A DNA stretch of 64,000 nucleotides from Candidatus Spongiisociaceae bacterium (GCA_965262915.1 OZ253564.1:1088001-1152000), one strand, 5' to 3'. Counted from the first letter of the stretch, positions 34,224 to 62,596 are shown. The notes: generated by a model not told the origin, from the letters alone. Numbers and translations are program-made.

Positions 34224-34827
34224 TCAGCCGGTGGTGACCGTCTGGCGTAGTCGGGGGTGATGTGGCCGTCGGCTAGGTCGGCCTGGACGGCTTGTGGGTC
34301 CGGTCGAGGGGGTTGCCATAGCCGCCTCCGCCGCCGGTGTGGCAGCGGACGGTGTCTCCTTGGCGGAGGAGCATGCGGGTGGTCTTGAGGCGGCGGACCT
34401 TTCGGGGGGTTGCGGAGTTGATGATGACTTCGGGGGTGCTCCGTCCTGGCCGCCGAAGAGGCCCCAGGCGGGGTTGGCTGAGCGCTCGAACCAGAGGCTC
34501 ATCCTGGTGTCGGTGGTCATCCGGTATTCTCGGATGATGCCGTTGCCTTCTCGCCATCGGCCGGGTCCGGCGGAGTCCTGGCGGTAGTCGTACTCGGTGA
34601 TGTGGGCGGGGAACTTGGATTCGAAGACTTCGATGGGCATGTCGTGGAAGTTGCCGGACAGGGTCCAGATCATGCCGTCCTCGCCGTCGCGGCCTTGTGG
34701 GGCGCCCCATCCGCCTACGTGGGGTCCGTTGCCGAGGAACAGTTCGCCCGTGCGGGGGCTGATGCCGGTGAACTGGAAGATCATGCCGTCGCCGTAGTGG
34801 GCGGCGGGGACGGTGTCGGCGAGGGCT
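34224..34827 (-). pseudogene. Hydantoinase B/oxoprolinase 3' fragment, copy A
   Basis: GGWGA..GRDG, PIEVFE, DSAGPG, TGGGGGYG; frameshifts. Confidence 0.9.
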
Positions 34828-35126
34828 GTTGTCCTCGTTCACATCGGGATGTAGTCGACGATGCTTCCGGCGTCACATCTGCTGCGTCCTTGAGACACTT
34901 CGACGGATCTAGGACCGAGCGGAGTATGGTCAACTCGGTCTGAGGATCTGACCTAACACGTTTAATGTGTTGACGATCGTTGAGGGTGGCAGTGATCGAC
35001 ATAGGCTATTTGCCCTGGGCCAGTTTGATGAGCTCTCGCCACTCAGCCCGCAACCTGCACATAGTCAGAGCGGCCAAAGGTGTCGAGCTTGGTGGCCAGG
35101 TCATGCAGCTGGCCGGCTATTGGCCC

Positions 35127-36440
35127 TCAGAGGCTGAGGCTGTAGCCTCCGGGCGGATCTGCAGTGGGTGGGGGCCTGTCTGGTACTGGTCGGACTGGCC
35201 GTTCACGGAGCGTGCTGCCTTGTGGGGTGGCTAGGGAGCGTTCCAGGGAGGTGAGCAGTTCTATAACGGAGGGGGCTTCGAGGACGCGGTTGCGGGGGCT
35301 GCTGGAGGGTCGGAGCCGCAGGATACCGGCTTGGAGGAGTTGTGTGATAGCAGCTCGGACAGCTACCGGGGAACGTCCTACCAGTTGTGCTGCCTTATCG
35401 GGAGTCAAGAGGGGAACCCCGGGGAGGATTCCTACGAGCAGATCCAGGGCGGAGCCTTTTCGGTAGCGTCCCAGCTTCTGGTTCCACTCGTCGGTCAGTT
35501 GGTTGATCCGGTCGCCGTATTCCACCGCGTCGTCGCATGCCCTTCGGGTAGCGGCTGTGAATGTGCCCAGCCACGGCTGTAGGGCGGCGTCTCGTTGAGA
35601 GCTGCCGGCCGGGCCTTCGTGCCGAAAGTCCGTGAGCCCTTCAACGTAGGAGTCGGACCAGGTAGACAGGACCAGACTGATCGGCGGCACGAACCGGGGC
35701 GCCAGTCCGCGTCTTCGCAGCACGATGTGGATCAGTGCCCGACCGGCACGGCCGTTGCCGTCTCCGAAAGGGTGGACCGTCTCGAATTGGGCGTGAGCGA
35801 CCGCGGCTTGGGTGAGTGGACTGTGATAGTCGGTGTTCACATAGTCGGCGAGATCGCTCATCAACTCGGGCACCCGGTCTGGGGGAGGAGGCACATAGGC
35901 GGCGTTGCAAGGGTTGAAACTTCCTCCCCCAACCCAGCCTTGCTCTTGGCGCAACACTCCTCCCAGCTCCGGGTTGGGGGAGCGGCCCATCAGTAGCTTG
36001 TGGACTTCCAGAAGGCCATCGAGGGTGACCGGCCCTTGCTGAGCGGCCAGGTCTACTGCCTGGCGCATGGCGTCGATGTTGCCGACCACTTCCGTCGCGA
36101 TGCTGTCTGTGGCAGCCAAGCCTTTTGCTATCTGTTCCTCGGCCGCTAGCAGACGCCGGGGACCAACCCTGAGGCCCTCGATGGCCGACGAGCCCACCGA
36201 CTCTGCTCGCAGCAGGAACCGGCCCATACCGGCCAAACCGGGGTGCCGCACGTCGGAACGGTTCAGGTCCCGTACCGCCTCCTCGGCTTGACTGACAGAC
36301 GCTGCCAACGAACCGGGAATCAGCGGATCCCACCCGGCCAGTAGATCAGGCGAGTAAGGGTGATACCAACCGCCCATCCGATCCGACCGGGTAGGACCCT
36401 CAAACCGAGGCGCCCACCACATCCGCAGATACTCCGCCAC
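35127..36440 (-). CDS. Fic family protein
   Basis: HPFGDGNGRAGR; ESVGSSAIEG. Confidence 0.93.
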   Translation of the reverse strand: MAEYLRMWWAPRFEGPTRSDRMGGWYHPYSPDLLAGWDPLIPGSLAASVSQAEEAVRDLNRSDVRHPGLAGMGRFLLRAESVGSSAIEGLRVGPRRLLAAEEQIAKGLAATDSIATEVVGNIDAMRQAVDLAAQQGPVTLDGLLEVHKLLMGRSPNPELGGVLRQEQGWVGGGSFNPCNAAYVPPPPDRVPELMSDLADYVNTDYHSPLTQAAVAHAQFETVHPFGDGNGRAGRALIHIVLRRRGLAPRFVPPISLVLSTWSDSYVEGLTDFRHEGPAGSSQRDAALQPWLGTFTAATRRACDDAVEYGDRINQLTDEWNQKLGRYRKGSALDLLVGILPGVPLLTPDKAAQLVGRSPVAVRAAITQLLQAGILRLRPSSSPRNRVLEAPSVIELLTSLERSLATPQGSTLRERPVRPVPDRPPPTADPPGGYSLSL

Positions 36441-36803
36441 TCGATCACTCCCTGGTTCGGGTAAGGCTAAGCAATAACCCAACCACCGCCACCCTCATAG
36501 CGACAGGATACCACGCAACCTGTTGCTAAGAGTCCCGGCCCGGCCGCCGTCCGGACAGGTAGACCCCAGCCTCGGGCTGCTAATGGGCATTGGTGGACGT
36601 AGCCGCCACCCCCCAGCGGATCATTCAGGTCAGAAACGAGTAAGCGACCGCAGCCCACGTTCGCGTCCCGACCTCTTGCTGCGAGCCGTTTACCTGGCGA
36701 CCACGATAACCGCAGGGGCCTGTCGATACGTAACAACCCGATCCTCCACGACGCTTGGAGCCGCTTTACCGAACCCTGGTCCTCGGTCGCTGAATGATCT
36801 GAG

Positions 36804-37158
36804 GCTGCGAACGCACCGTAGGACGCGTCGCCGGCACCGGTCGTGTCCACCGGTCGATGGACCGTCCGAACTGGGATGTGGGTCACGTCGGTACCTGTGG
36901 CGACAACGCACCCAACGTGGCGGAGCTTCACAGCGGCGAACCAAGCGCCGGCCGCGACGTAGTCCCGGGCCGCTCGCTCATGGTCCGGTCCGGCTAGGTG
37001 TTCGCTCTCCAGGCGCTGGGCACCAAAGCAGTGCAATCGGCTACGAGGTCGATGTAGGTATCCGGGTTGGTGGCAGCGTCGTCTGTGTGCGGGTCGAGGG
37101 TGATCATCGACCGGGCCTCGGCTGTGACTGCGACCCATCCGGCCTGGTATCGCACGGG
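36804..37158 (-). pseudogene. Duplicated central/3' fragment of the pfkB gene
   Basis: Similar to about 44980-45332; VDTTGAGDA. Confidence 0.85.
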
Positions 37159-37231
37159 TGGCCATGTACGCCGGTGGGCGAGCGGAGCAGCCTGCTTCCC
37201 CGGCTAGGTTTAGCCAGGGAGAACATCGATC

Positions 37232-38035
37232 ATGTCCGACAGCAGCATAAGCGAGTCTTACCGGAGGGATGGCTACTACTTCCCGATCCCCGTCCTTTCG
37301 GGCGATGAAGCCCGAGAGTGCCGCCGGCGCTTGGAGGCCTTCGAGGCCGAGCACCAAGGGTTGCCCGACAGATACCGCTTCAAGACTTACCTGGTGTGGA
37401 CCTGGCTCGATAGGCTGATTCGACATCCGCGGATCCTGGATGCTGTCGAAGCAGTCATCGGACCCGACATCTTGTGCTGGTCGACTGACTTCTTCATCAA
37501 GGAAGCACACGATCCGGGGTTCGTGTCATGGCACCAGGACTCGACCTACTGGGGGCTCGAACCTCCGGACGTGGTCACGGCTTGGCTGGGACTCACCGAC
37601 AGCACTGACGAGAACGGGTGTGTCCGCGTCGTGCCGGGCAGCCACCTGCAGGGCCAGGTTACGCATCACGACACTTTTGGAGAAGACAACCTGCTATCTC
37701 GAGGACAGGAAGTGATGGTGAAAGTCGACGAGAGCGAGGGCGTCGATCTCAGGCTGTCTGCCGGGGAAATCTCACTCCACCATGTCCTGGTAGTCCACGG
37801 ATCCCGGCCGAACCCATCATCGGACCGTCGCATCGGAGTCGCATTCCGCTACCTGCCCACCCATGTGCAGCAGACTGAGGGGGTCCGCGAGTCGGCCATG
37901 CTCGTGCGAGGAATCGACGAGTACGGGAACTTCGACCTCGAGCCCCGACCGCGGACCGACTTCGATGAGGCGGCGCTTTCGGCCCATGCCGATGCCATGG
38001 GGCGGTTCGAGAGATTCGGAGAAACATCGCTGTAG
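37232..38035 (+). CDS. Phytanoyl-CoA dioxygenase (PhyH) family Fe/2OG enzyme
   Basis: WHQD, VVPGSH, HGS.PN.S..RR. Confidence 0.92.
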   Translation: MSDSSISESYRRDGYYFPIPVLSGDEARECRRRLEAFEAEHQGLPDRYRFKTYLVWTWLDRLIRHPRILDAVEAVIGPDILCWSTDFFIKEAHDPGFVSWHQDSTYWGLEPPDVVTAWLGLTDSTDENGCVRVVPGSHLQGQVTHHDTFGEDNLLSRGQEVMVKVDESEGVDLRLSAGEISLHHVLVVHGSRPNPSSDRRIGVAFRYLPTHVQQTEGVRESAMLVRGIDEYGNFDLEPRPRTDFDEAALSAHADAMGRFERFGETSL

Positions 38036-38075
38036 GGGGCGAACCCCTTTGCACCGGGTTTCTCAGTACCCTCCC

Positions 38076-38422
38076 AGGAACAGTTCGCCGGTGCGAGGGT
38101 TGATGCCGGTGGGCTGGAAGACCATGCCGTGGCCGTAGAGGGCGGGGGAGAGGGCCGAGCAGATAGGGTCGATCATCGGTCGAGGGGGGTCAAGTGGACC
38201 TGGCAGGCGGCGGGGGAGCGGGCATGGTGGATCGATCCGGGTTTGGTGAGTACTTCCCGGGGGCGGAAGGTGCCTCCGTTGACGGGTTGGCGGGAGTTGA
38301 ACAGGTACTTGAAGGCTAGGCGGCAGGCGGACAGAGTCTTTACGGCGCCGCAGTTGATGGGACCCTGGCCGGGTCCGTCGATCTCGGCGAGGCCGAAGGC
38401 CAGGCGCTCGCCCTCCACCGTG
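38076..38422 (-). pseudogene. Hydantoinase B fragment, copy B (middle region)
   Basis: VEGERL...GPINCG...AFKYLF; similar to 62140-62510. Confidence 0.88.
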
Positions 38423-38485
38423 TTGATAAACCCATGACACTGGGGTCGGCATGGGAGCCACCTACGACATAGTTGGCTGAGTGCT

Positions 38486-40429
38486 CTACAGACTGATGGA
38501 GTAGGTCGCTAATTGTTCTGGGTATTCGGATCGTGAGTATATGACTATTGTGTAGACGCCGCTGGTGGTGATGAACTGTCGGAGGTCGGCTTCGATGGTT
38601 ACGCTTCCATCCGAGTGGACGTCCCAGGTGTGAGCTACAACATCCTCTGGGTCCAGATCCGGATAATATGATCCGGGCGATGGTGGTATAAGTACTCGCA
38701 CGATCGGTTCTATATTCTCACAGTCATCAGTGAAGCCACCACCCACACAGTAGGCTTTGAGTCTGAAGATATCCTCCGGTCGCTTCGGAGTTGGTGGTGG
38801 GTCGTAGTAGATCGCTATCCCGCCTATCTCAATGCTGGCCTCGGGTCGTAGTGAAAGGCGTAGTAGCCCGCCGGTGAGGTCGGGCGCTGTTTCGTGGGTT
38901 AGCCGTGTGTATTCGAAGTGCTGAAAGTACGTAACATGGCTCTCAGTAAACGATATACCGATGTTGACGGTATCGTAGATAGGGTCAATGATCGTATCGC
39001 GATGCCCCCAATTCGCATGAGCATCGTCATACATCATGCCCCACTGAAGTGACTCGATCGCGCTGAGCACATCGATGTCTCCGCATACGACGGTCGGATC
39101 ATCACACCTTTCTGATCCTCTAGCCTGCCCCGCAGCGTTCTCAGCCATTACACCGATGCCACCTGCTTGCGTGTACAACATGTACGGCTTCAATCCATCC
39201 GATGTCCAGTGCCCTGTTAAGTACCCACTACGTACCGAGTCTTCTGCATGGGCCTGTGCAGCCTGGTTCGACCCGAGCCGGACAGGCGGTGAACCGTGTG
39301 ACTGACGATCCCGGTTTATGAGCTCAACGGCAAAGAGGCGAAGCTCCTCGAGCGTGGGGAACTCCGGCTCATCGAAGGATACAAGGCCGGTATCCGGCTG
39401 TAGATCAGCGGTGTCCAGGTTGATGAAGTATCTGCTTGCTGGAAGCTCAGAACCTGTCCAGACCACCACTTCATACACACCGGGTCCTGGGACCAATTCT
39501 GCGATAGACACAGCTATCGAGGTCATATGACTATCACTCGACCAGTATTCGGCCGTGATATCGACGTCCCGGAGAGTCAGCATCTGACTGCTGTCCGGTG
39601 GTCTGTGTATTGAGAGGACCTTGGTACGGGATAAGGTAGCCGTGGGGGAAGAAGGAGCCGGATAATAGTACAGATCGACACTTTCGATCTCGACTCCACT
39701 ATACGGGACCACTTCGAGACTCAGGACTCCACCTGACACCGACGGTTCCTTCAGATATGTCAGCTTCTGGTGCTCTAACTGAAAGACCACCACAAACGTG
39801 AAGTCTGTGTACGCAACTCCCACATGTAGAGTTTCCCAATCAGAGAACAGCGGACTCTCCCGCTCCTCAGGAAACGTCTCCGCCAAACGCGAATCCACAT
39901 ATTCCGACAGGTACGCCTCCGGGTCGGTTCTCGTACAGATCACCAGAGCAGACCGACACTGGGTGAGTTCAGCGGTGTCGAGATAGCCACGGATCGCGCC
40001 TGAGGACAAGATGGCTCCTCGGCCCCCGGTCGCTGTGTACACAACCTCGAGCGGTAGTCCATCCTGGGTGTAATCTGCCAGACGTAAGGCCTCAAGGGCC
40101 TGCTCAGCCACATACTGGGCGGCAACACCATCCCCGATCTCCAACGGGGCACGCCCCCGGTCGATCCGTTGCCGGTTGACACGGTCCACCGCCATAGCTC
40201 GAAGCGACGCGACCTCATCAGACGGAACAGTATCCACTCGGCCCAGTGAACCGTCCGCACCCTGGTCCGTACTCGGAGAGGCCGAGGCCGTGCCACCACG
40301 CGACGTTGACTCCTGGTCCCGAACAGGCTCACTAGGACCGTCGAAGTCGACAACCTGACCATCCTCACCACACGCCAAAACCAAGAAAACAGCCAGCACA
40401 GCACCCAGGCAAACCCGCCTACTAGACAC
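38486..40429 (-). CDS. Lipoprotein with two CAP/SCP-like domains
   Basis: Lipobox VLAC; INRDR...AQAHA, AEN, WGHRDTII...VNIGI; start approximate. Confidence 0.8.
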   Translation of the reverse strand: MSSRRVCLGAVLAVFLVLACGEDGQVVDFDGPSEPVRDQESTSRGGTASASPSTDQGADGSLGRVDTVPSDEVASLRAMAVDRVNRQRIDRGRAPLEIGDGVAAQYVAEQALEALRLADYTQDGLPLEVVYTATGGRGAILSSGAIRGYLDTAELTQCRSALVICTRTDPEAYLSEYVDSRLAETFPEERESPLFSDWETLHVGVAYTDFTFVVVFQLEHQKLTYLKEPSVSGGVLSLEVVPYSGVEIESVDLYYYPAPSSPTATLSRTKVLSIHRPPDSSQMLTLRDVDITAEYWSSDSHMTSIAVSIAELVPGPGVYEVVVWTGSELPASRYFINLDTADLQPDTGLVSFDEPEFPTLEELRLFAVELINRDRQSHGSPPVRLGSNQAAQAHAEDSVRSGYLTGHWTSDGLKPYMLYTQAGGIGVMAENAAGQARGSERCDDPTVVCGDIDVLSAIESLQWGMMYDDAHANWGHRDTIIDPIYDTVNIGISFTESHVTYFQHFEYTRLTHETAPDLTGGLLRLSLRPEASIEIGGIAIYYDPPPTPKRPEDIFRLKAYCVGGGFTDDCENIEPIVRVLIPPSPGSYYPDLDPEDVVAHTWDVHSDGSVTIEADLRQFITTSGVYTIVIYSRSEYPEQLATYSISL

Positions 40430-40664
40430 CCCCAAACACCAATCCCCCGACGTTCTCCGTATCATCGGCCCGGAAGGCGTCGGAGGGCTCGCGTGCCGGT
40501 CCTGGAAGAGGCGTCGCGGGTACCCGCCATGACAGCCTGCACGGTCTTGGGATGTCCTTCGTGGGCCACGCCGCTGGATCGTAGCTAGATTCGGGCTACC
40601 TACCTGCGGGGGCGGGGAGGGTGGGGGCGGGTCAACGACTCCCGCGATTGGTTCCACACATGAA

Positions 40665-40938
40665 CGCCGTAGCAGCCTCCGCCGCCGGTGTAGCAGCGGG
40701 CGGTGTCGCCTTCGCCGGAGGGCGTGCGGTTGGTTTTGAGGCGGCGGGTCTCTGTGGGGTTCCGGGGTTGATGATGACTTCGGGCGGTGCGCCGGCCTGG
40801 CCGCCGAAGAGGTCCCAGGCGGGGTTGCCGGAGCGTTCGAACCAGAGGCTCATCTCGGTGTCGATGCTCATCCGGTAGTTGCGGATGATGTCGTTGCCTC
40901 CACGCCATCGGCCGGGGCCGGCGGAGTCCTGGCGGTAG
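40665..40938 (-). pseudogene. Hydantoinase B fragment, copy C
   Basis: YRQDSAGPG...SLWFERSGNPAW...YTGGGG. Confidence 0.88.
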
Positions 40939-41089
40939 GTGTCTCAGTGACGCGGACCGGGGAACTTGCGTTGATGATTGTCGAAGTCTTGTCTCGATCG
41001 CTGAAACTCACCCCCTATCGCCTGCAGACGATTCCCGGTTTCACGGGGCCGCTCCGAGATGGTGGATGCGCGATGCGGGCCGAGGCCGG

Positions 41090-42034
41090 TCAGAAGAGGG
41101 CGGCCTGTCCGGGGTGCGAACTCTCGTCGGGCTCGGATTGAGGGCTTTCGAGGATGTTCCGGAGTTGGGATGCGTCGGTGAGGGGGATCGCGCCCATGTC
41201 AGCGAGAGCCTCGTTTCCCGGACCTTCGCCAAGGCCTCGCCAGACAGCCACCCGGCAGTAGCGGCCCTTCATCGCCTCCGTCGCCCCTGACCACGTACCG
41301 CCCGAGCCCTTGTCGGCCGCTACCGCCACGGTTACATCCGAGAGGGCGTATATGAGCTTGTTCCGGCCCATCGTCGTGCCGACCGAGAACGGGGAGTCCG
41401 GTGCATATGGTGTACACATGACTGTCCGGCCCTCGTAAACGGCTCGGCGGACACCCGGGGACTTTAGGATGCGGGCGAGCGAGTGGGCCGGGGCGCCGAT
41501 CACGTTTCCTTCCGCCGTGAAAGCCGCGTTCATGGCCAGTTGATCCACCGCTCGGGCCTCACCTGAGATCAGCGGGACGCCGAGTGACGCCGCCTGCTTA
41601 CCGAGATCCGTCGCGACTCGGGCGCCTTCGTTGCTCACGTTGCGGCTTCCCACGACTCCGACGCCTCCTTCGTCGAGGAGTTCCAGTGCTCCGGCGGCGT
41701 GGAGTATCGGCGGTGCCTTGGGCCCGAGGCTCGCGCGAAGCCGCTGCGGATAGTGGTCGTCGAACGGTGTGAGGGTGGCTATCCCGGACTGGTCGAGCCG
41801 TTCCAGTTGGAAGGCCATCGTGGTAGCCCTCGCCAGCAGGGCGACCACCCGGTCCGCCATGTCCGCCATCAGCCCGGTGCCTACTAGATCGTTCTCGGTC
41901 ATCCCGAGAAGACCGCCGGGGTGGCCCATGTCGGTGACCAGCTTCCAGAATTGGCGAGCCGTGAGCGGACTTGTCCCATCGCTCGCTATCCGGCTCACCA
42001 GGAGGATCGTGGCCAGTGCGTCATCGCTCCTCAT
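41090..42034 (-). CDS. dprA: DprA/Smf family DNA-binding protein
   Basis: YP..L, VVGSR, RNKLIYALS, GGTWSG; ISGEAR replaces the usual ISGGA. Confidence 0.85.
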   Translation of the reverse strand: MRSDDALATILLVSRIASDGTSPLTARQFWKLVTDMGHPGGLLGMTENDLVGTGLMADMADRVVALLARATTMAFQLERLDQSGIATLTPFDDHYPQRLRASLGPKAPPILHAAGALELLDEGGVGVVGSRNVSNEGARVATDLGKQAASLGVPLISGEARAVDQLAMNAAFTAEGNVIGAPAHSLARILKSPGVRRAVYEGRTVMCTPYAPDSPFSVGTTMGRNKLIYALSDVTVAVAADKGSGGTWSGATEAMKGRYCRVAVWRGLGEGPGNEALADMGAIPLTDASQLRNILESPQSEPDESSHPGQAALF

Positions 42035-42205
42035 CGCACCGACCTCCCTGCCTTACTGGCCATGACAAGAGGATATCCCGGCTCGTATCCTGCGTCCTGA
42101 CGACCTGATCGTGCGGAGCCTGACCCGACTCCCATGGGTTGGCTGGTTTCGCGCGCCTCTTCCCGGAGGCTCAGAGTGCTCTGGCTGGAGGTTTGCGCCG
42201 GTCGG

Positions 42206-43435
42206 CTACGCCCACAGTGTGGACACGGGCGCCGCGAGTATACGGTCACCCAGTTCGAAGGTGTCCCGGCCCGTGTGCAGCACGACACCGCCCGCGAAGC
42301 GCTCCTGCATCGTCTCGCTTAGCCACGACAGGTGGCGGGCGTCGGAACGTCCGACGCTGGCCGCGGCCTTGATCTCCACGCCGACGACCCGCCCGCCGGC
42401 CAACTCTGCGATCACGTCCACCTCTCGGCGGCCGTCGCGCTCGCGAAGGTGCGAGAGCCGGTAGCGGGTACCCGACACAGCCGATTGGGCCTGCAACTGG
42501 GCTATCACGAAGGTCTCGATCATCGCGCCGAGGAGGTCGCCGCTGGCCATGACGTCGTCGATGCCGACGCGCAGGATACCCCCGAGCAGGCCGGAGTCGA
42601 CCATGCAGCGCCTGGGCGCCCGGCTGAGGCGCTTGAGCCGGTTGGTCGACCAGGCCGGCAGCTCGTTCACGACCATCAGGTCCCGCAGCAGCGCATCGTA
42701 CGACAGGGCGGTCTTGCGGCTGATACCAGCCGCGTCGTAGACCGTCTTGTGCTGGACTACCCGTCCGGAGTTGATTGCGTAAGCCTCCAGGTAGCGCTGC
42801 AGCCGGTAGGCGTCGGGTTCGGCGCCGAGGGTGCGGGCGTCGCGCAGGGCGATCTGGTCCGCATAGCTCTCGAGCCATGCTCGGGCGGCGCGGTCGCTCA
42901 GCTTGAGCGCAGGCTCCGGATACCCGCCTCGCAGAGCAAGCTGCAGATACGAGCGAAGGTCGACCGGCGCTCCCGGGGCGCCTTCCAGCCCATCGCCCTC
43001 CGCAATGCGGTCGACGAGCGGACGCACGGGCCGATGCTGCTGCTCGGCCACAGTCAGGGGGTGCATGCGCAGCATGACGACCCGGCCCGTAAGGGGCCAG
43101 AGCCGGTCGGCCGGGTCGGTGCGGGCTGATCCGGTGATGAGGAAGCGTCCGGGCCGCCGGTCTGCGTCGATGGTCCGCTTGACGGCGCCGAGCACCTCCG
43201 GCACCATCTGCCACTCGTCGAGCAGCACAGGCTCAGCACGGCCGCGCAGCGCCGCATCGGGGCTGACGCGGAATGCGGCGGCGTCGTCGGAGTCCAAGCG
43301 GACCACACTTCTGACGAGACGGATGGCGGTCGTGGTCTTGCCACAGGCGCGCGGCCCCACGACCATGACGGCCGGGATCTCTTCGATGTACTCCTCTAGG
43401 AGCGTGTCAACGAGGCGGGAGACGTAGCCCTCCAT
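42206..43435 (-). CDS. AAA_14 ATPase with DUF4143 domain
   Basis: GPRACGKTT, LDEWQ, TGS, D.GL, EVD...EIK. Confidence 0.92.
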   Translation of the reverse strand: MEGYVSRLVDTLLEEYIEEIPAVMVVGPRACGKTTTAIRLVRSVVRLDSDDAAAFRVSPDAALRGRAEPVLLDEWQMVPEVLGAVKRTIDADRRPGRFLITGSARTDPADRLWPLTGRVVMLRMHPLTVAEQQHRPVRPLVDRIAEGDGLEGAPGAPVDLRSYLQLALRGGYPEPALKLSDRAARAWLESYADQIALRDARTLGAEPDAYRLQRYLEAYAINSGRVVQHKTVYDAAGISRKTALSYDALLRDLMVVNELPAWSTNRLKRLSRAPRRCMVDSGLLGGILRVGIDDVMASGDLLGAMIETFVIAQLQAQSAVSGTRYRLSHLRERDGRREVDVIAELAGGRVVGVEIKAAASVGRSDARHLSWLSETMQERFAGGVVLHTGRDTFELGDRILAAPVSTLWA

Positions 43436-43521
43436 GAGGGGAAATACTAGACCATCGAAACTAGTTCCCGGTTATGCACGCTACCACTTCCCGGTTTCGC
43501 ACATAATCTGATGATGCTGAT

Positions 43522-43707: not shown

Positions 43708-43725
43708 CCCCCCGATGCTGGCTGT

Positions 43726-52048: not shown

Positions 52049-52130
52049 TGCGCGGCGGTCTCGAGCACAGCGCATCTTGAGCCCGCCCTGAACCAACCCG
52101 ACCCGAGCCGATGTCTCTACCCACCCGAGG

Positions 52131-53282: not shown

Positions 53283-53510
53283 GTGTGTTCGGAAGACCCG
53301 TTTTAGACAATCAAGCTGGTCGTACGAGATTTCGTGGGATCGGGCGCCGGTTTTTTTGCGCAGTTGCAGAAGGTTTCGGGTGGCGACTGCCTGGAAGGTT
53401 TCGTCTCACACGTACCGTACCGGGACCTCGCATGACCACAGACGGAGAACACCGAGTTTCCTAGTAGATCCTTGCGTCTAACCAAGGAGGGTTCTTCGTC
53501 AAGCACCCGG

Positions 53511-54442: not shown

Positions 54443-54640
54443 CTCCTGCGGCGCTTGGCCGGGCACCCCCGTAGGTCACGAAACCGTGGGCGACAAGTCC
54501 CGGGGGCTAAGACTCAGAGGTAGTCGTGACTTGAGAGGGCTGCGCTCTCAAGCGCAAGAATTTGCACACTACTGACGTATTACGAACCTTCTTGACCCAA
54601 GATGGATCGAAACCGCTCCTATACGGCTCGGAGGCCTCCT

Positions 54641-55912
54641 ATGCTGCTCGGGTTCCAGGTCACGAACCACCGCTCGTTCCTCGGACAAACGGACTTCTCG
54701 ATGATGGCCGTGGATAAGGATCGGTCGGCGACACGCTGCTTCGAGCGTCTCTCGGAACCGGTGCTGACCGTTTCTGGGATCTACGGCCCCAACGCTTCGG
54801 GGAAGTCTAATTTTCTATATGCCATTACATGGTTATCGAACGCTGTCAGGAGATCTCTTCGAGGCTGGGACGAGTTCATCCCCCGGGATCCCCACTTGAT
54901 AGGCGAGGGTCCGGCTAGGCCGTCGGTCTTCGATATGGCGATCGTTGTCGACGGGGTTGAGTATGAGTACCGGCTCGTGGTTGACGACTCAGCGGTGCTG
55001 TACGAAAGCCTTCATGGCTATCCCGAGCGGAGGAGACGAAGGTTGTTCGAGCGAGACAAGGACGAAATCGAGTTTCGACGCGGCTTGGGTGGTGCTCGTG
55101 GAGTAGACAGTGTCCTTACGTCGACCACGTTGGCGCTGTCCGCTGCCATGCGCTTCCGGATGCCCGATGTTGGCAGCGTAGGACGCGCTATCGCAGGAAT
55201 CCGTGCCGTCGGGATTAGATGGCCTGTGGCGGGTTTCAACCCCTACTTGGACTCGACACAGCGCCTGTTCGCTGGGGAAAGCGAAGGCCGTCAGTTGACC
55301 CTTGTCGACATGCCCACAGACCGAGACGTAGCCTTGGACTTGCTGCGCTGGGCCGATCCCGCAATCTCGGATGTGGAGTTTATCGAACGGGGCGAGAACG
55401 AGGACCAACCGGCTCGGGGTTCCGCCCGTCCGTCGCGTCGTCAGTTGCAGTTCGTTCGCCGAGTTGCCGATGCGGAGTACTCTCTGGGCTTCCGTGAGGA
55501 ATCTGCAGGGACGAAGACTTGGTTCCGACTATTGGGACCAGCTCTCGGAGCCCTTGGGAGAGGTCAGGTTCTGTTGTTTGACGAAATCGACGCAAGCCTC
55601 CATCCCCGGCTCTCTAGTCAGTTGATCCAGCTCTTCCAAGACCCCGCGTCCAATCCTCGCAATGCTCAACTGGTCTTCACGACTCACGATACGTCACTGC
55701 TCAACGTTTTGAATCGCGACGAGGTTTGGCTGACAGAGAAGAGATCCGACGGGTCATCGGAACTCGTCGCGCTTGCAGAGTATGGATCTGAGAAGATACG
55801 GAAGTCGTTGAATCTTGAGAGGGCCTATCTACAGGGTCGGTTCGGAGCTATTCCCGAACCCGACCAAATCGTGATCCGCCACGCCCTCGGGCTCGCTCTT
55901 GGAGAAAGGTGA
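54641..55912 (+). CDS. RloA-like AAA_21 ATPase
   Basis: NHRSF, GPNASGKSN, ESAGT, DEIDASLHP, TTHD, YLQGRFGAIP. Confidence 0.9.
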   Translation: MLLGFQVTNHRSFLGQTDFSMMAVDKDRSATRCFERLSEPVLTVSGIYGPNASGKSNFLYAITWLSNAVRRSLRGWDEFIPRDPHLIGEGPARPSVFDMAIVVDGVEYEYRLVVDDSAVLYESLHGYPERRRRRLFERDKDEIEFRRGLGGARGVDSVLTSTTLALSAAMRFRMPDVGSVGRAIAGIRAVGIRWPVAGFNPYLDSTQRLFAGESEGRQLTLVDMPTDRDVALDLLRWADPAISDVEFIERGENEDQPARGSARPSRRQLQFVRRVADAEYSLGFREESAGTKTWFRLLGPALGALGRGQVLLFDEIDASLHPRLSSQLIQLFQDPASNPRNAQLVFTTHDTSLLNVLNRDEVWLTEKRSDGSSELVALAEYGSEKIRKSLNLERAYLQGRFGAIPEPDQIVIRHALGLALGER

Positions 55913-56310
55913 TGGCGAGATCTCGACAACGGGTACACAGGAGACGAAGACCTCGTAAAGTCGGCGTTCGTGTTCCACGAAAGACTTACCTCGTGTTCTG
56001 CGAGGGTGCGAGAACGGAGCCCGAATATATCAAAGCGCTCAAGCAAGAACCTGAGGTTCGTGCGCGTGCCTCCGTCCGGATCGGCAAGGACACAATCGGT
56101 ATCGCGCCTCCCTTGACCCTGGTTAGAGCGGCAGTCAAAGCCATCGATCGTGCCGAGGAGGAAAAGGCCGAAATCGATGAGGTTTGGTGCTTGTTCGATG
56201 TTGAGTGGCCCCACAATCACCCCAAACTGGCTCATCGCGTTTCAGTGGGGAGTGACGGTCGCGAGTAGGCCCCAGTTGGGTTTCCCGGCTCTTCGATGCT
56301 CCTATGGTTG

Positions 56311-57540
56311 TCAAATCGATGATGGGGCGGTTTGGTGGGTGTGCAGCCAGTTCTGGTATCGGGTGGCGAGGTGGTGGTTGTGGTCTCGGCCGTGTTCGAG
56401 TGCTGAGATGCGATTGGGGTGGGTTCCGACGGCTTGGGCGGTCTGGGTGAGGGTGATGCCGCGTTGTTGGCGTCGGGTGCGTAGGCGGGCGCAGTTCGGG
56501 GTTGGGTGCGGGTTGGTGAGGAGCCGGTAGATTTCTCGGGCGATGTGCCGCTTGAGGCAGCGGATGATCTCCTTTTTCTTCTTGCCCTCGGCCTTGCGTC
56601 GTGCCACGTAGGCTTTGGTGGCGGCGTCGGTGCGCATCCGGGTGGTAGCGATCCGCCATAGCGCGTTGTTGGCTTGGCGGTTGCCGCCCCGGTTGAGACG
56701 ATGCCGAAGGGTTCGTCCTGATGACGCCTGGACGGGGCTGGCGCCGCACAGCGCCGCGAAAGACCGTTCCGATTTCATTCGCTTGGGGTTGTCGCCGGCG
56801 GCGACCAACAACGCGGCGGCTGTGTCAGGACCGACACCTTCTGTGGCCAGCAGGGCCGGGTTGGCCTGGGCGCAGAGACGCCGGATCTCGGCTTCGAGTT
56901 GGGCGATCTCTACGTCGAGGGCCTGATACCGGCGGGCCAAATGCTGTAGGGCACGCTTCGCATACGCGGTGGTGGTGTGGTCTGTGCCGGGTCGGAACCG
57001 GGCACAGGTTTTGACCCGTGCTTTGAGATTCATGCCCTTTAGCTGGTGTTTTAGCGGCTCGGGAGCTGTTACGACCAGCGCATGTATCTGGTTAGCGGCC
57101 TGGGTGCGGGCCTTGACCGCGGAGCGGCGCACCACCCACAGCATCCGTATGCACTCGACCGGGCCCACACCGGACTTGGGAACCGCGGTTGCTTCGCCCG
57201 AGGCAGCTGCCCGAGCTGCCGCCTCGGCGTCGACGCTGTCGGTCTTGCCGCCCTTCTGGCGGCGTAGTTGGCGGTTGGGGCGGTTGACCTCCACCACCTC
57301 GATGTTCATCTCGGTCAGGTAACGGGCCAGGCCGGCGCCGTAACTACCCGTTCCTTCCACCCCAACCCGAACCAACTGTCCCCGCGACTCGAACCAGGTG
57401 ACCATTCGCCGATAACCGGATTCCTCCACCGCGAAAGACTCCGATCCCAGTACCCGCCCGACGCCATCCACCACCGCTGCTACGTGGACGTCCCGATGGG
57501 TGTCAACCCCACCGTAGATAATCTGGTCTGCTTCTCCCAT
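56311..57540 (-). CDS. IS110 DEDD recombinase with C-terminal HTH_XRE-like extension
   Basis: GVDTH, EGTGSYG, KTDSVDA, SSG, GGNRQAN; tail LRTRRQQRGITLTQTAQAVG...ISALEHG. Confidence 0.93.
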   Translation of the reverse strand: MGEADQIIYGGVDTHRDVHVAAVVDGVGRVLGSESFAVEESGYRRMVTWFESRGQLVRVGVEGTGSYGAGLARYLTEMNIEVVEVNRPNRQLRRQKGGKTDSVDAEAAARAAASGEATAVPKSGVGPVECIRMLWVVRRSAVKARTQAANQIHALVVTAPEPLKHQLKGMNLKARVKTCARFRPGTDHTTTAYAKRALQHLARRYQALDVEIAQLEAEIRRLCAQANPALLATEGVGPDTAAALLVAAGDNPKRMKSERSFAALCGASPVQASSGRTLRHRLNRGGNRQANNALWRIATTRMRTDAATKAYVARRKAEGKKKKEIIRCLKRHIAREIYRLLTNPHPTPNCARLRTRRQQRGITLTQTAQAVGTHPNRISALEHGRDHNHHLATRYQNWLHTHQTAPSSI

Positions 57541-57559
57541 GATGCTCTTCTCCTCTAGG

Positions 57560-57755
57560 GGATAGAATCATTTCCGATCCCCGGACCCGTGTGCGGTTGG
57601 ACAGGCCACTCACGGTGGAGAAGTTGAAGGCTCCTATTAGGTCACATCCGCCCCGGGTCAGGGGGTTACGCCCCAGGCCGGGAACGGGCCGACAGATCGA
57701 TGAAAAGGCACAAGGCCAGATTTCAGTTGGGTCAGACCCGCCCTAGCCCAGGAAC
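57560..57755 (-). ncRNA. Putative IS110 bridge RNA
   Basis: Two loops carrying guide matches to target and donor sequences (see findings); ends approximate. Confidence 0.75.
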
Positions 57756-59565
57756 CCTCCAATTATGAGTGGATTTCAGTGGGGAGTGACCGATGCGAGG
57801 AGGTCCCAGTTGGGTTTCCCGGCGTAGAGAAGGGCGCGGATTCGGTAGTTCGCGAAGTTGGGTAACCCGAACGCTGCTCGTTTGATCCGCTTTATGAGGT
57901 TGTTGAGGGCTTCGGTGGCATCTGTTGGTTACCTTCGAGATGTGCCAGTTGGTGATCTGGGGGGTCCAGCGGGCGATGGTGCGACCCAGCTTGTTGATCT
58001 CGGGTGGGCAGGATTCGTCCTGGAGGTCGTCCGCGAGCCCGACGGTGTACCGGAGAGCAAGGACCGGACTTTCGATCCCGTAGATGCCCCGTACCGTTTC
58101 GGTCGCGTGCCAGGCTGTGCGTACCTCCCCGTGGGGGTCACCGGCGTCCAAAAGACCACGCAGCCGTGTTTGACCGCGGTCGCTGATCCTCTCATGCGCG
58201 GCGGTGAGGAGGCGGCGTATCCGATACAGCGGGTCATCCTTGCGGCCTCTGTGTCCCAGGGTTTCGTTTTGGACTCTTCGTCGTAGGTCGTCGAGACGCT
58301 GGTTGGCGAGGCGGCTGACACCGAACGGGTCCGCTACCCCGGGGGCGTGGGGCAGCACCCTGTCATACGCCTTCCGATACGAACCGGACATGACCCGACA
58401 CCGCCCAGCGGATAGCCTCACACCATTCGGTGGGCTGCGCCCGGAACCAGGCTGCGGCGCTTTCTGCCGTTCTACCACCGACTATGTCGAACCGGCTGGT
58501 GGCCTCCCACGTCGACGACAGAGGTGCACCAGACCTTGGTACGCCACCGGCCTTTCCGCCAGAACAACGCTTCTTGTCGATGCCCACAGCTTGGACCTCG
58601 CCTATCCGGTCGGTGTCGGCCCCCAGGAGGGCTTCGCCCCAGCGGCCGACCTCGTTGTTCACCGTATGCCACCCACAACCAAGCTCTGCGGCGACCTCGT
58701 CGACCGGGCGACCCCGCCCACCCACCCCGATGGTCACCCACCTCGCCGCTCGGGATGTCAACAACGCCCGTTGGGGACCAATCGTGGGGTCTTGCTCGAT
58801 GAACGATCTGAGCGCACAGTCGGTGTTCGGACATGTCCAACGGCGTTTCCGCCACCGCAGCCGAACCGGACGGCCGAACGCCGGTAAATCCACCAACACC
58901 ACCGTCCGCTCACCCTTGGACCACACCGGGCCACCACAGGCCTCACAGGACGGCCGGGGCTTGCGGGACCCGATCACCACCCCAAGCGGTGCACCCTCGC
59001 CCGAGTCGTTGATCCCTACCAGGTCAACGTCGCCTAGGCCTACCAACTTCTCGCACATGCGCGCAGGGATCAGCTTCCACAGGGGTCCTCCTGCCTCGGA
59101 TGTCGCTTATCAACAGCCGATTATGGAGGACCCCTCCTCACTTCTGGTGGATTCCGATCCCCCCTGGCAGATCCCCTACTCCCCACCCATTCGCGAAGAG
59201 CCCCCAAACTCGACCAGACCGTGGCTCTCGCCAAGAGGAAGAATGTACAGATTGCTGTATCGAATCCAAGCTTCGAGTTATGGCTCGCTCTTCATTTTCG
59301 AGACTGTCCAGGATGGCTAGACACCAAAGCCGCGGAGAGGCTACGCAAGAGTCATGACGGCAGTACAGACAAGGGCGTGAATGGGGCAATGTACATGCGG
59401 ATGCGACTGATCGGGCTCTTGGTCTAGCAGAGAAGCACGAGAAACAGGGAACACGGTTTCCACACGACAACCCATCATCAGGTATGTACTTCCTCCTCCA
59501 AGCAGTCGACCCCACCATTACGTGAAACCCTGAGCTTCCCGGAGAGTGGCTTGGTTTGGGCTCGG

Positions 59566-60201
59566 TCAGTCTTCGGCCAGGTCTTGGGAACTCAGTCGGT
59601 GGTGGCGTCTAGCGTAGTTGGGGGAGATGTGGCTGTCGGCTAGGACGGCTTTGGGGTCGCGTTCTAGGGGATTGCCGTATCCGCCGCCGCCGGTGTAGCA
59701 GCGGACGGTGTCTCCTTTGCGGAGGGGCATGCGGTTGGTCTTGAGGCGGCGGATCTCGTTGGGGGTTCCGGGGTTGATGATCACTTCGGGGGGTGCTCCG
59801 CCTTGGCCGGCGAAGAGGCCCCAGGCGGGGTTGGCGGAGCGTTCGAACAGAGGCTCATCTCGCTGTCGGTGGTCATCTGGTATTCGCGGATGATGCCGTT
59901 TCCTCCCCGCCATTGGCCAGGTCCGGCCGGTAGCTGTAGTCGGTGGTCCGGGCGGGGAATTTGGATTCGAACACTTCGATGGGCATGTCGTGGAAATTGC
60001 CGGACAGGGTCCAGATCATGCCGTTCTCCCCGTCGCGGCCTTGTAATGCTCCCCATCCGCCTACGTGGGGCTCGTTGTCGAGGAACAGTTCGTTGGTGCG
60101 GGGGTTGATGCCCGTGAACTGGAAGACCATGCCGTCGCCGTAGTGGGCGGCGGGGACGGTGTCGGGCAGGGCGGGGGAGAGGGCCGAGCAGATCAGGTCG
60201 A
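59566..60201 (-). pseudogene. Hydantoinase B 3' fragment, copy F
   Basis: DLICSALSP through the stop codon (..QDLAED*); small deletions. Confidence 0.9.
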
Positions 60202-60205
60202 ATCA

Positions 60206-60340
60206 TCCAACACACGGAACAATCTCATCAGACGAATCAAACGAGCAGCCTTCGGGTTCCGCAACCTCGCGAATTATCGAATCCGGGCAATCCTCTGCGT
60301 CGGGAACCTCAACAGGGATCTGCTGGCGGCCGTCACTCTC
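60206..60340 (+). mobile_element. ISL3 transposase C-terminal remnant
   Basis: NNLIRRIKRAAFGFRNLANYRIRAIL. Confidence 0.8.
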
Positions 60341-60547
60341 GACGGCGCCGGAACTCACGACATAGTCATCGGCGCTCTGCCGTCCCACCTCGGAGATCCC
60401 CAATGCCCTGTAGGCAAATACCCGGTGTCGGGTATTTGGGTTTGGGCGTGTTCGTCCCTCGAGCAGGTGCATCACGTCAGGTGCTGGTCGCTTCAGGTCC
60501 GGAATGGGGTGTATCTTGGGGGAGGGGGTATCGGTCGGCTACCGGAC

Positions 60548-61189
60548 CTATGGGCGACCGAACGTGTCAAAACCGGGGGATGATTCACGGTTGGCGCGAA
60601 GGGCTTCCACGTCGGCCAGATCTTGCAAGCGGCCAGCAGCCAGCTTGTTGTGTTCCAGGTCTTCCAAGCCGATGAAGGGAACCGCCAGCGAGTCCAGCCG
60701 TATCTCGACTCGCCGCTCCCAGCACCCCTCGAAGTCGACTCCGGCGATGCTGGTCAAGATGTCGATCCGGTTCGGGGGATACCCTAGTTGGACCACATGG
60801 CCCTCGACAGCGAAGTCCTCCGCCGACAGTCCGAGTGATCCGAAGCCGAACTCGTCCAACACCGCGGCTGTCCGGGCGGCGTTCTCGGGATCTACCCAAA
60901 CCCAGATGTCCAGATCCTTGGTTAAGCGGGGATGGCCGTGCGCTGCCACCGCGTATCCACCGACCACTAGGAAACGCACTCCGTGCTCGGCGCACAGCGA
61001 GACGAAATCGTGCATTTCCTTTCCCAGCCGCATCAGCCCCCCGTGGTCGCTGTCCGGACCGTAGTAATACCCTTGTAGCTCCCGAACATGAGCGACCCGC
61101 TCCCCCGGGGGGCGAGACAGCCAGAATCCGGCATCAGGGTCGGGATCGCCCAGCCGGATGGTGGTCGCTACCTTCGCAATCCCAGCCAT
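60548..61189 (-). CDS. Nucleotidyltransferase with in-frame 53-aa N-terminal module
   Basis: GGYAVAAHGHPRLTKDLD, K.AAGR.QDLAD; internal ATG at 61033. Confidence 0.85.
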   Translation of the reverse strand: MAGIAKVATTIRLGDPDPDAGFWLSRPPGERVAHVRELQGYYYGPDSDHGGLMRLGKEMHDFVSLCAEHGVRFLVVGGYAVAAHGHPRLTKDLDIWVWVDPENAARTAAVLDEFGFGSLGLSAEDFAVEGHVVQLGYPPNRIDILTSIAGVDFEGCWERRVEIRLDSLAVPFIGLEDLEHNKLAAGRLQDLADVEALRANRESSPGFDTFGRP

Positions 61190-61375
61190 GCGAACACCGT
61201 TTCCCCGTTCCGAACTCCGCCATGGTACCAGCAGACGGGTATCTCCAAGGGGTGACGGCCGGTTGGCTGCAGGATGGGTACGGCCCAGTCAGGCGGTACG
61301 AGTGGGTGTGCTCGTGTGATCGCCACTTCACCTGATCCGGGGGTCTGCGCATTGCCGATTGGTGATGAGGAGTGT

Positions 61376-61572
61376 GTGACCATAATGGCGGGGTGACGAG
61401 TTCGGCATCTCCTCGACGGAACGCGTGGTGTCGGACGGGGATTTCGGGAGAGAGTGTCTGCGGCTCATTGAGGGGTGGAGGGCTCTGGAACGGTGATAGT
61501 TGTTACCAAGCACCGCCGGCCGGTCGTGAGGGTGGGACCATTCCGCGGGGAGGCGCCCAAGCTGGTCGGATC
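61376..61572 (+). pseudogene. Degenerate third Phd antitoxin copy with its promoter
   Basis: tgaccataat plus a frameshifted match to 26309-26490. Confidence 0.75.
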
Positions 61573-61601
61573 CTCACAGCCCCGCGAGAGGACAGACAGG
61601 G

Positions 61602-62596
61602 TCAGTCTTCGGTGAGGTTTTCGGAGCTCAGTTGATAATGGCGTCTGGCGTAGTCGGGGGAGATGTGGCCGTCGGCGGTCGGCTAGGACGGCCTGGGGGT
61701 CGCGTTCGAAGGGGGTCTCCGTAGCCACCTCCGCCGCCGGTGTAGCAGCGGACGGTGTCTCCTTTGCGGAGGGGCGTGCGGTTGGTCTTTAGGCGGCGGG
61801 TTTCTCTGGGGGTTCCGGGGTTGATGATTACTTCGGGGGGTGCTCCGTCCTTTCCGCCGTAGAGGCCCCAGGCGGGGTTGCCGGAGCGTTCGAATCAGAG
61901 GCTCATCTCGGTGTCGGTGGTCATCTGGTATTCCCTGATGATGCCGTTGCCTCCCCGCCATTGGCCGGGTCCGGCGGAGTCCTGGCGGTAGCTGTAGTCG
62001 GTGATCCGGGCGGGGAACTTGGACTCGAACACTTCGATGGGCATGTCGTGGAAGTTGCCGGACAGGGTCCAGATCATGCCGTCCTCCCCGTCGCGGCCTA
62101 GGGAGGGTCCCCATCCCCCCACGTGGGGTTCGTTGTCGAGGAACAGTCCGTTGGTGCGGGGGTTGATGCCGGTGAACTGGAAGATCATCCCGTCGCCGTA
62201 GTGGGCGGCCGGAACCGTATCGGGCAAGGCCGGGGAGAGAGCTAAACAGATCAGGTCGATCATCAGGCCCAGGGGGGTGAAGTAGAACTGGCAGGCGGCG
62301 GGGGAACGGGCGCCGAGTATCGACCCGGGTCGGGTTCGCACCTCCAGGGGCCGGAAGGTGCCTCCGTTGACGGGATGGTGTGAGTTGAAGAGGTATTTGA
62401 AGGCCAGGCGGCAGGCCGACAGTGTCTGGACGGCTCCACAGTTGATGGAATCCTGGCCCGGGCCGTCGGTGTCGCTGAGGTTGAAGATCAGGCGTTCTCC
62501 TTCAACGGTGATCTTCACGCGTATCCGGACGGGATCGTCTCCTACTCCGTCGGAGTCCAGGAAGCCTTCGGCGGTGTAGACCCCGTCGGGGATTGC
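61602..62596 (-). pseudogene. Hydantoinase B 3' half, copy G (longest)
   Basis: AIPDGVY..E.FLD.DG through the stop codon (..NLTED*); TGG-to-TGA nonsense change at 61895; 5' half absent. Confidence 0.92.

Follow-up and report, generated by a model that had tools for sequence, protein, structure and literature searches.

Partial hydantoinase-B gene copies stacked at the border of a variable region with defense-type cargo in sponge-associated Acidimicrobiia

RESULTS

Seven damaged hyuB fragments on one strand

We analyzed a 64,000-nucleotide (nt) stretch of DNA, here called the window (positions 1,088,001-1,152,000), from the genome of Candidatus Spongiisociaceae bacterium (G000). The window carries seven diverged, damaged partial copies of a hydantoinase-B gene (hyuB), all on the minus strand and named F1 to F7 (Table 1). 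Coordinates count from the start of the window, and gene positions are those of an intact ortholog, whose coding sequence (CDS) spans nt 1 to 1701. A preliminary description, made from the window alone, had listed seven same-strand damaged copies, and its coordinates agree with ours to within a few tens of bases. Open reading frames (ORFs; stop to stop, ≥100 amino acids [aa]) from 28.5 to 64 kb were scanned against Pfam; 10 of the 150 matched PF02538 (Hydantoinase_B), all of them on the minus strand and in six of the fragments. These matches have E values between 5e-60 and 2.7e-5 and cover profile positions 227 to 519, collinear with the C-terminal part. F4 lacks an ORF of ≥100 aa and was detected as a DNA repeat and by blastx. 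A repeat search found direct-repeat families of 80 to 300 nt at all seven sites, and pairwise DNA identity among the fragments is 76 to 91%.

Because their gene coverage overlaps, F1 to F7 are separate copies, as had been argued in the preliminary description; its statement that none retains the 5′ half also holds, since no fragment extends upstream of gene nt 706. Every fragment has 3 to 13 frameshifting indels, and in-frame stops are present also in F4, F5, and F7. In the tree of copies, F5 and F6 are sisters (bootstrap, 91). A genome-wide search for the hyuB family in G000 returned nine partial matches, all within the array, and 14 intact paralogs elsewhere. We rejected these paralogs as a source of the fragments: at the protein level they reach at most 52% identity, and about 42% where the longer fragments are compared, and the sole DNA match is 41 nt long. 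As the paralogs have no other match at the DNA level, G000 holds no intact source copy.

A truncated native gene and a variable region

The sequence beyond the break in F7 (positions 62627 to 64000) matches DNA that, in the congeneric genomes G005 and G006, is located 16 to 18 kb upstream of hyuB, and about 30 nt of filler occupy the joint 5′ of F7. This synteny shows that F7 is the native hyuB, of which only the 3′ part is left, and that G000 lost hyuA and the first ~700 nt of hyuB in one deletion of ~16 to 18 kb. The six other fragments fall in the ~58-kb variable region between hyuB and a flank formed by DAO oxidoreductase and aldehyde dehydrogenase genes. This flank is found 50 to 59 kb downstream of hyuB in four genomes (G000, G005, G006, and G022), and their hyuB-DAO intervals share content only in part: a loose backbone comprises a CYTH-CHAD gene, a MazF region, and an SLH-SpoIID protein, and the remainder differs among genomes.

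The seven pieces in G000 have been trimmed by deletions and, in one case, by insertion of an ISL3 element. At 5.06 Mb, the genome exceeds most of its relatives (mostly 2.3 to 4.4 Mb), and it is rich in insertion sequences (IS), with ~45 ISL3, ~30 IS110, and ~15 IS4-like copies. Because of the IS expansion and of the ~17-kb deletion of hyuA and the hyuB 5′ part, the G000 array is a frozen, decaying fossil without a likely present function, and its anchor gene is dead.

Arrays beside intact hyuB genes in related genomes

An intact hyuB ortholog, with 84 to 90% aa identity to F7, was found in 15 of 41 genomes searched, in three genera of one family; the unpublished genome G028 underlies none of our claims. 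Across this family of sponge-associated Acidimicrobiia, hyuB is the border gene of a variable region of ~50 to 58 kb that contains defense-type genes. A DNA scan detected extra hyuB 3′ fragments in at least 8 of 29 family genomes, including G001, G005, G006, G021, G041, and G042. G006 has an intact hyuB, five fragments, and a sixth small piece (nt 617 to 708); G021, from another genus, has an intact hyuB and four fragments; and the fragments beside hyuB number two in G005, one in G001, and one plus a second full copy in G042. In G006, G021, G005, and G001, the intact gene is followed by same-strand 3′ partial copies of varying length that are most like the adjacent gene; in G000, the head gene of the array is itself truncated.

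Gene-proximal fragments are the longest and the most similar to hyuB in the relatives' arrays. Identity to the intact or native copy drops with distance in all four arrays examined, for example from 93 to 96% near the gene to 79 to 83% far from it in G006 (rho = −0.89, n = 7), through 97, 89, 80, and 85% outward in G021 (rho = −0.80, n = 4), and from 100 to 87.7 to 80.9% in G005.

Junctions between cargo and fragments recur among genomes. The 5′ junction of F4, where the end of a phosphodiesterase gene meets nt 1315, is common to G000 and to fragment f4 of G021, in another genus, and the 5′ junction of F3 (end of a DprA-like gene, nt 1281 to 1288) resembles that of fragment f5 in G006. A PhyH junction at nt 1252 is common to G005 and G006. 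At the junction of an ATPase gene with nt 1452, aligned in five copies, the hyuB piece measures 225 nt in G021, and ~20 nt are left in three other genomes. The same units occur in different order among genomes. Because cargo-fragment joints are common to several genomes and even genera, parts of the stack are old.

Cargo seen next to fragments in the window is also seen next to intact hyuB elsewhere. PhyH comes after the intact gene at 4 of the 34 orthologous loci (directly in L062 and L063 and within 0.1 to 0.8 kb in L061 and L087), as well as in G042b, and a DUF4143 ATPase does so at 1 of 34; F2 followed by PhyH and F4 followed by the ATPase are the corresponding adjacencies in the window. 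A ~600-nt Phd-antitoxin module that belongs to the newest (proximal) unit of G001 and G021 comes directly after intact hyuB in G013, G041, G043, and G044. Gene X, which precedes F2 in the window, is the immediate upstream neighbor of hyuB in two genomes of another genus, G022 (58% aa identity) and G013. F2 is 84 to 86% identical to most orthologs of the g7 genus versus 81 to 82% identical to F5 and F7. Together, X and F2 appear to be what is left of a second hyuB locus of foreign origin.

hyuB itself recombines: breakpoints lie within the intact genes, which are mosaic. The two full hyuB copies of G042 show 0 differences over nt 199 to 1058 and 68 over nt 1059 to 1670, and the G005 and G006 genes differ at 2 to 7 positions per 100 nt and then, from about nt 1509, at 15 to 16 per 100 nt. 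The G042 copies (L046 to L048) are on different contigs and share the 860-nt stretch without differences, with ends and both flanks that differ; they may reflect a true duplication, or two strains may have been binned together.

The upstream side of hyuB takes insertions as well. In G005, G006, G022, and G013 (L033, L035, L039, and L026), hyuA ends 3.2 to 3.7 kb before hyuB, and the insert is either gene X (G022 and G013) or a paralog of the DUF4143 ATPase with 51 to 54% tblastx identity (G005 and G006); in G021, nothing separates hyuA from hyuB. Although assigned to the genus of the window, G001 is unusual in that its hyuB and downstream unit are, along their whole length, closest to another genus (91 to 97% identity to G021). 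This affinity could mean either that the locus moved between genera or that a contig was mis-binned, G001 having an estimated contamination of 8%.

Proposed sequential displacement at the hyuB border

These data best fit homology-anchored sequential displacement at the border of a defense hotspot, followed by IS-driven decay in G000, an account to which we give a little better than an even chance. New DNA would enter at the hyuB-proximal end of the variable region as a piece made up of a hyuB 3′ segment and the genes downstream of hyuB in the donor. This piece would pair with the resident hyuB by homologous recombination, and its far end would be resolved either by an illegitimate join (homology-facilitated illegitimate recombination) or by a single crossover of a circular intermediate; the data fit both versions, and either may apply. 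hyuB would thereby be rebuilt whole, and the old 3′ end of the resident gene would be shifted downstream with its old neighbors. Repeats of the event would stack units of cargo plus hyuB 3′ fragment, the oldest and most eroded farthest from the gene, and recombination among the repeats, deletions, and IS insertions would then shuffle and trim them. We infer both the recombination mechanism itself and a horizontal, rather than within-genome, origin for most units. The preliminary description had proposed an integron-like accretion array: serial acquisition beside the gene is supported in part, by the relatives' arrays, the gradients of identity and length, the conserved junctions, and the non-paralogous cargo described below, but integron-like machinery is not.

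Several observations weigh against sequential displacement. The identity gradient in G000 itself is not significant (rho = −0.66, n = 6), and F1, the most distal fragment, is less diverged than F2 and F4, though this is expected if F2 is foreign. Distance-dependent gene conversion could account for part of the gradient. The F3-X joint is not a native adjacency and must have another type of event behind it. Twelve of the 20 fragment starts that were mapped fall in nt 1252 to 1390, a clustering that displacement does not account for and that could mark a preferred site. Other starts nearly coincide, with two independent junctions at nt 1315 and with F5 and F2 beginning 8 nt apart (nt 784 and 792). 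The first fragments of G021 and G006 are 97% and 93% identical, respectively, to the gene of their own genome, with which the tree groups them (bootstrap, 87 and 97), and this grouping of the youngest fragments fits duplication within the genome as well as it fits a close relative as donor; some of the youngest copies may indeed have arisen by such duplication. Finally, no acquisition event was caught in progress, each species being represented by one genome and four public data sets showing one fixed structure.

Possible origin of the fragments within the genome

The grouping just described would follow if all fragments arose within the genome, by local duplications of the hyuB 3′ end (unequal, illegitimate, or IS mediated), with independent insertions, deletions, and decay thereafter. 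We think this unlikely as the sole explanation. F5, F6, and F7, which are mutually 89 to 91% identical and thus slightly closer to one another than to most orthologs, fit it, as do the many ISL3 and IS110 copies in G000, the ISL3 scrap that adjoins the 5′ end of F6, and the duplication within the window of PfkB and of the nucleotidyltransferase/Phd block. The cargo speaks against it. In G000, G005, G006, and G021, adjacent units share hyuB pieces only, the exceptions being IS copies, PfkB scrap, and one partial DprA copy, and the proximal (newest) cargo of G006 has no second copy in its own genome and is missing from all 28 remaining family genomes. Because the cargo of adjacent units is non-paralogous and the newest G006 cargo has no other copy, the array is not a tandem amplification, an explanation that the preliminary description had named as one that would overturn its own. 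In addition, X, F2, and PhyH match arrangements of other genera, to whose orthologs F2 is closer, and the mosaic structure of intact hyuB genes is a further point against a purely local origin. As for IS activity, we rejected an IS as the cause of the youngest duplication in G021, since the same unit in G001 is without ISL3; the ISL3 copy in the G021 unit arrived later.

Possible site-specific insertion

The preliminary description had suggested that the hyuB 3′ half acts as a long attachment (att)-like site. A version in which the hyuB 3′ region is a true att site, used by a recombinase that lies elsewhere, was lost, or belongs to an unrecognized family, and in which each element brings a replacement gene end, seems to us decidedly improbable. 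All copies are direct repeats, as it would predict, and a constant 3′ border ~40 nt past the stop codon is found in F1, F7, the intact G006 gene, and G006 f1. The C-terminal tails of intact orthologs are variable, and the clustering of 5′ ends within nt 1252 to 1390, with two independent junctions at nt 1315, would also suit an att site.

Against these points, mapping of ~17 junctions, a check that the preliminary description had put forward, revealed no common 5′ breakpoint or crossover core: the 5′ ends lie at various points between nt 706 and 1550 (706, 784, 792, 1026, 1072, 1252, 1269, 1281/1288, 1315 [twice independently], 1353, 1377-1379, 1390, 1452, and 1550). The starts at nt 1026 to 1072 lie beside the G042 breakpoint at nt 1059, a coincidence that is unexplained. 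The repeats are 190 to 1040 nt long, and usual att cores are far shorter. No recurrent attC-like site was found: when the sequences that follow the stop codon in F1, F5, F6, and F7 were compared with the window and with the islands of three relatives, each tail matched itself alone, except that the F1 tail also matched G006 f1. A search of a phage collection returned no phage with an array segment, and a search of a plasmid collection returned no plasmid with one, only two distant paralogs (65 to 70% identity).

No recombinase accompanies the arrays either. That no integrase is visible had already been noted for the window; a hidden Markov model (HMM) profile search extended this result, with no tyrosine (PF00589) or serine (PF00239) recombinase in the hyuB-DAO interval of G000, G005, G006, G022, or G021. 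PF00589 has 31 matches in G000, none of them in the window; the nearest recombinase match in this genome lies 88 kb beyond the window, and only 3 to 6 tyrosine recombinases were counted in each of the whole genomes of G005, G006, and G022. In 441 ORFs (150 + 145 + 95 + 51) from the window and from the arrays of three relatives, Pfam detected transposases and no integrase domain. Two uncharacterized ORFs in the youngest units, one of 463 aa in G006 and one of 532 aa in G001/G021, were considered as a new recombinase and rejected, since Pfam, NCBIfam, and PADLOC gave only weak TPR matches; no recombinase-like domain was seen in these units.

Support from public sequence data

Least credible by far is an assembly artifact in which strain variants were collapsed into one contig, for although the contamination estimate is 5.87% and copies that are 76 to 91% identical can confuse assemblers, the genome is a single 5.06-Mb contig, relatives have the same architecture, and public contigs agree with it. 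In four of four runs, each from a different study, contigs covered all 30 bins of positions 43400 to 63300. Contigs with 0 to 1 differences bridged five junctions (phosphodiesterase-F4, SIS-F5, F5-AbiLi, AbiLii remnant-F6, and the F6-F7 block with F7), and in two of the four runs (X10 and X11), ~3-kb contigs spanned F4 to F3. The array structure is thus real and fixed in four independent samples, which all but disposes of the chimeric assembly that the preliminary description had raised as a possible refutation.

No well-supported joint between hyuB copies, by excision or deletion, was seen in contigs of the four public data sets. Individual contig joints between copies (e.g., 61799 to 53718 and 45348 to 59798) were rejected; each rests on one contig with short sides and is probably another copy that was misplaced. 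For the 9.9-kb stretch at 53400 to 63300, 83 to 87% of sampled words occurred in runs filed under at least five organism labels in separate studies from 2023 to 2025. Given this near-identical stretch in those runs, the G000 bacterium or a clone of it is present in many samples. Sponge-metagenome runs gave small shares, which we do not take as a sign of its habitat.

Cargo between the fragments

Of the cargo names given in the preliminary description, Fic, PhyH, DprA-like, DUF4143 ATPase, the sugar/nucleoside cluster, and RloA/RloB were confirmed by Pfam; the CAP assignment of gene X (E = 0.04, under the curated cutoff) and the nucleotidyltransferase (Table 1) are weak. It had also assigned different cargo to each interval. 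This stands for adjacent units, but PfkB sequence occurs three times in the window, and the F6-F7 block has a paralog at 25.1 to 26.5 kb (25116-25672 and 26273-26490). The block between F1 and F2 (34827 to 38075) consists of PhyH, a PfkB remnant, and SoFic. The sugar/nucleoside module is also present in G042, at 85 to 88% identity, and its decayed ends are found in G006. Only the last ~10 codons of hyuB vary; the fragments pass through the normal stop codon, and the cargo consists of separate genes.

PADLOC matched SoFic, PsyrA, PDC-S01, AbiLi/AbiLii, and a PsyrT remnant in the window and PsyrT, BrxH-like, and NsnB-like proteins in relatives. By these matches, much of the cargo is of defense type, mixed with toxin-antitoxin (TA) and metabolic modules. 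By analogy, the setting can be classed with the core defense hotspots that Johnson et al. described (2023, PMC10250203).

The PsyrTA pair is separated in the window, with a remnant of PsyrT (RecQ-like helicase) at 28530 to 29498 and an apparently intact PsyrA 12 kb away; in G006, PsyrT and PsyrA are adjacent and intact. The DUF4143 ATPase, whose borders are sharp, was considered as a single-gene mobile module and rejected: its downstream border is the old hyuB junction at nt ~1452 that is common to four genomes, and no terminal repeats were seen.

Table 1. Positions of hyuB fragments, cargo, and flanking genes in the window, with the matching part of the intact hyuB gene
Feature	Position	Strand	Gene nt	Remarks
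Aldehyde dehydrogenase	3-1523			Conserved far flank, with DAO
DAO oxidoreductase	2072-3385	-		Conserved far flank
CYTH-CHAD backbone gene	32168-33928			Comes after F1
F1	34159-34826	-	1072-1740	Most distal from native gene; ~40-nt post-stop tail kept
SoFic (Fic)	35130-36494	-		PADLOC 4e-64
PfkB remnant	36470-37525	-		
PhyH dioxygenase	37232-38035	+		
Gene X + F2	38076-40657	-		X is 723 aa, secreted/lipoprotein-like
F2	38076-38422	-	792-1163	
F3	40666-40968	-	1281-1584	
PDC-S01/PsyrA block	41093-43504	-		~20-nt hyuB remnant (nt ~1452) after ATPase
PsyrA (DprA-like)	41093-42052	-		PADLOC 7.2e-78; Pfam
PDC-S01 (DUF4143/AAA_14 ATPase)	42209-43471	-		PADLOC 1.1e-108; Pfam
F4	43522-43707	-	1315-1506	
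Sugar/nucleoside module	43729-53282			Phosphodiesterase, PfkB kinase, DUF3830, solute-binding protein, nucleoside hydrolase, 2 ABC permeases, RidA, SIS
F5	53518-54428	-	784-1694	7 frameshifting indels, 1 stop
AbiLi (RloA-like ATPase)	54596-55909	+		Pfam; PADLOC 1.2e-83
AbiLii (RloB), split	55819-56265 + 59038-59424	+		PADLOC 4e-12
IS110 + ISL3 composite, 2.9 kb	56279-59202			Interrupts AbiLii
F6	59579-60218	-	1026-1688	Spread across three reading frames
ISL3 end scrap, 121 nt	60218-60338			Adjoins 5′ end of F6
Block F7-F6	60219-61561			Weak nucleotidyltransferase-like ORF, Phd-like remnant, ISL3 scrap
Nucleotidyltransferase-like ORF	60551-61288	-		Weak, E ~1e-3, under curated cutoff
F7	61562-62596	-	706-1739	13 frameshifting indels, 1 in-frame stop; Pfam match 5e-60

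Other repeats in the genome

The IS110 (transposase at 56314 to 57567) plus ISL3 composite that interrupts AbiLii is present as a unit in at least 12 genomic copies with 84 to 98% identity, which suggests either that the end of ISL3 offers IS110 a fixed target or that the two elements move as a pair. A ~360-nt repeat at 18122 to 18485 has ~20 copies in G000 (81 to 86% identity), 9 in G006, and 2 in G021; it has no ORF or Pfam match and may be an element resembling a miniature inverted-repeat transposable element or a structured RNA. Just to the left of an IS4-like element (20760 to 22588; ~15 copies) lies a ~144-nt repeat (20515 to 20658) with ~16 diverged genomic copies at 72 to 76% identity.

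No other local family of diverged direct repeats in G000 is as large as one outside the window, at G000:C1:1661576-1689801 (L095 and L096). It comprises two copies of a ~3-kb element, 84% identical to each other, and five 150- to 450-nt copies of the left end of this element, spread across 28 kb. The island around it is again of defense type and includes an SNF2/PLD helicase, an Eco57I-like methylase, DUF433, and AbiEii. We considered this 1,661- to 1,690-kb array as a second stack of gene ends and rejected it; its repeats are copies and ends of the ~3-kb element, one copy of which has a weak DDE_Tnp_1_6 match (7.7e-5) and which looks like an unclassified mobile element with solo ends.

DISCUSSION

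How hotspots without integrases or transposases gain and exchange their content is an open question raised by Johnson et al. (PMC10250203) in the sections of that paper considered here. Under sequential displacement, the leftover hyuB ends would preserve the order and relative age of acquisitions. The mosaic intact genes show that the flank is a recombination substrate. The idea of a displacement array would also reach beyond polymorphic toxin loci and take in an ordinary enzyme gene next to a defense island in uncultured sponge symbionts, and stacked partial copies of the gene that flanks a hotspot offer a simple search image for other genomes.

A broader proposal is that the hyuB 3′ end serves as a recombinase-free landing pad that builds an ordered, integron-like stack of defense modules; we advance it tentatively and lean toward doubting it. 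Linear or circular DNA with homology to the hyuB 3′ end would be captured by the general recombination of the host and older units pushed outward, and the repeated gene ends would allow excision, shuffling, and passage between species and genera of sponge symbionts. If the proposal is true, remnants of flanking genes would be a general, readable timeline for core defense hotspots without mobility genes.

Comparison with known systems

The closest likeness is to rhs loci, in which partial 3′ copies of varying length form direct repeats that are nearly identical to the upstream gene, silent, and marked by frameshifts and stops (Jackson et al. 2009, PMC2935791). Displacement at rhs was proposed to proceed through homologous recombination that involves circular intermediates (PMC2935791). 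As at hyuB, an intact gene is followed by decaying same-strand 3′ partial copies. The sections of the rhs report that we draw on describe pieces that carry a variable toxin tip and an immunity gene and so diversify the protein (PMC2935791). In the hyuB array, by contrast, the repeat is the end of an ordinary metabolic enzyme without a variable domain, the variable part is made of whole unrelated genes past the stop codon, and the host is an actinobacterial sponge symbiont. The displaced units at hyuB have no variable C-terminal toxin domain with a cognate immunity gene.

Effector-immunity modules of the Vibrio cholerae type VI secretion system (T6SS) are proposed to be displaced in sequence by homology-facilitated illegitimate recombination anchored in conserved upstream sequence (Kirchberger et al. 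2017, PMC5361080). There, modules of greater age move downstream, an analogy with integrons is drawn by the authors, and no integrase is reported in the sections of that paper considered here (PMC5361080). A conserved anchor, a proposed sequential displacement, and the lack of an integrase are common to the T6SS and hyuB arrays. The two differ in that the T6SS cargo, as presented there, consists of immunity genes selected for self-protection (PMC5361080), whereas the hyuB cargo is a mixture of defense, TA, and metabolic genes, and its anchor is unrelated to the cargo.

Core defense hotspots are intervals between fixed core genes that hold very different defense sets in related genomes (Johnson et al. 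2023, PMC10250203). Many have no detectable mobility gene, and exchange through conserved flanks has been proposed (PMC10250203). The region studied here resembles them in its fixed hyuB and DAO/aldehyde dehydrogenase flanks and in content that varies among genomes. It differs in its stacked partial copies of a flank gene, which are not described in the sections of PMC10250203 considered here and which at hyuB record the order of acquisition.

With integrons, the hyuB array shares ordered units in the same orientation, the newest beside the entry point. Unlike integrons, it has no IntI, no attI or attC, and no promoterless single-ORF cassettes; its units are multigene blocks of 1 to 10 kb bounded by gene fragments of 190 to 1040 nt. 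Tandem integrative islands at one att site (in tRNA genes, or staphylococcal cassette chromosome [SCC] elements at rlmH) also arise by serial insertion at the 3′ end of a gene and leave a direct repeat each time. Such islands rely on an integrase, and their repeats are short and fixed in position; the hyuB array has neither feature.

The preliminary description had not recognized the array as a described system. Its anatomy nevertheless matches that of the rhs (PMC2935791) and Vibrio T6SS (PMC5361080) arrays, and its setting matches the hotspots of PMC10250203, as far as the sections cited from these papers describe them. We class the hyuB array as a displacement array at the border of a defense hotspot and not as a new category; an enzyme gene as the anchor and multigene cargo are what set it apart.

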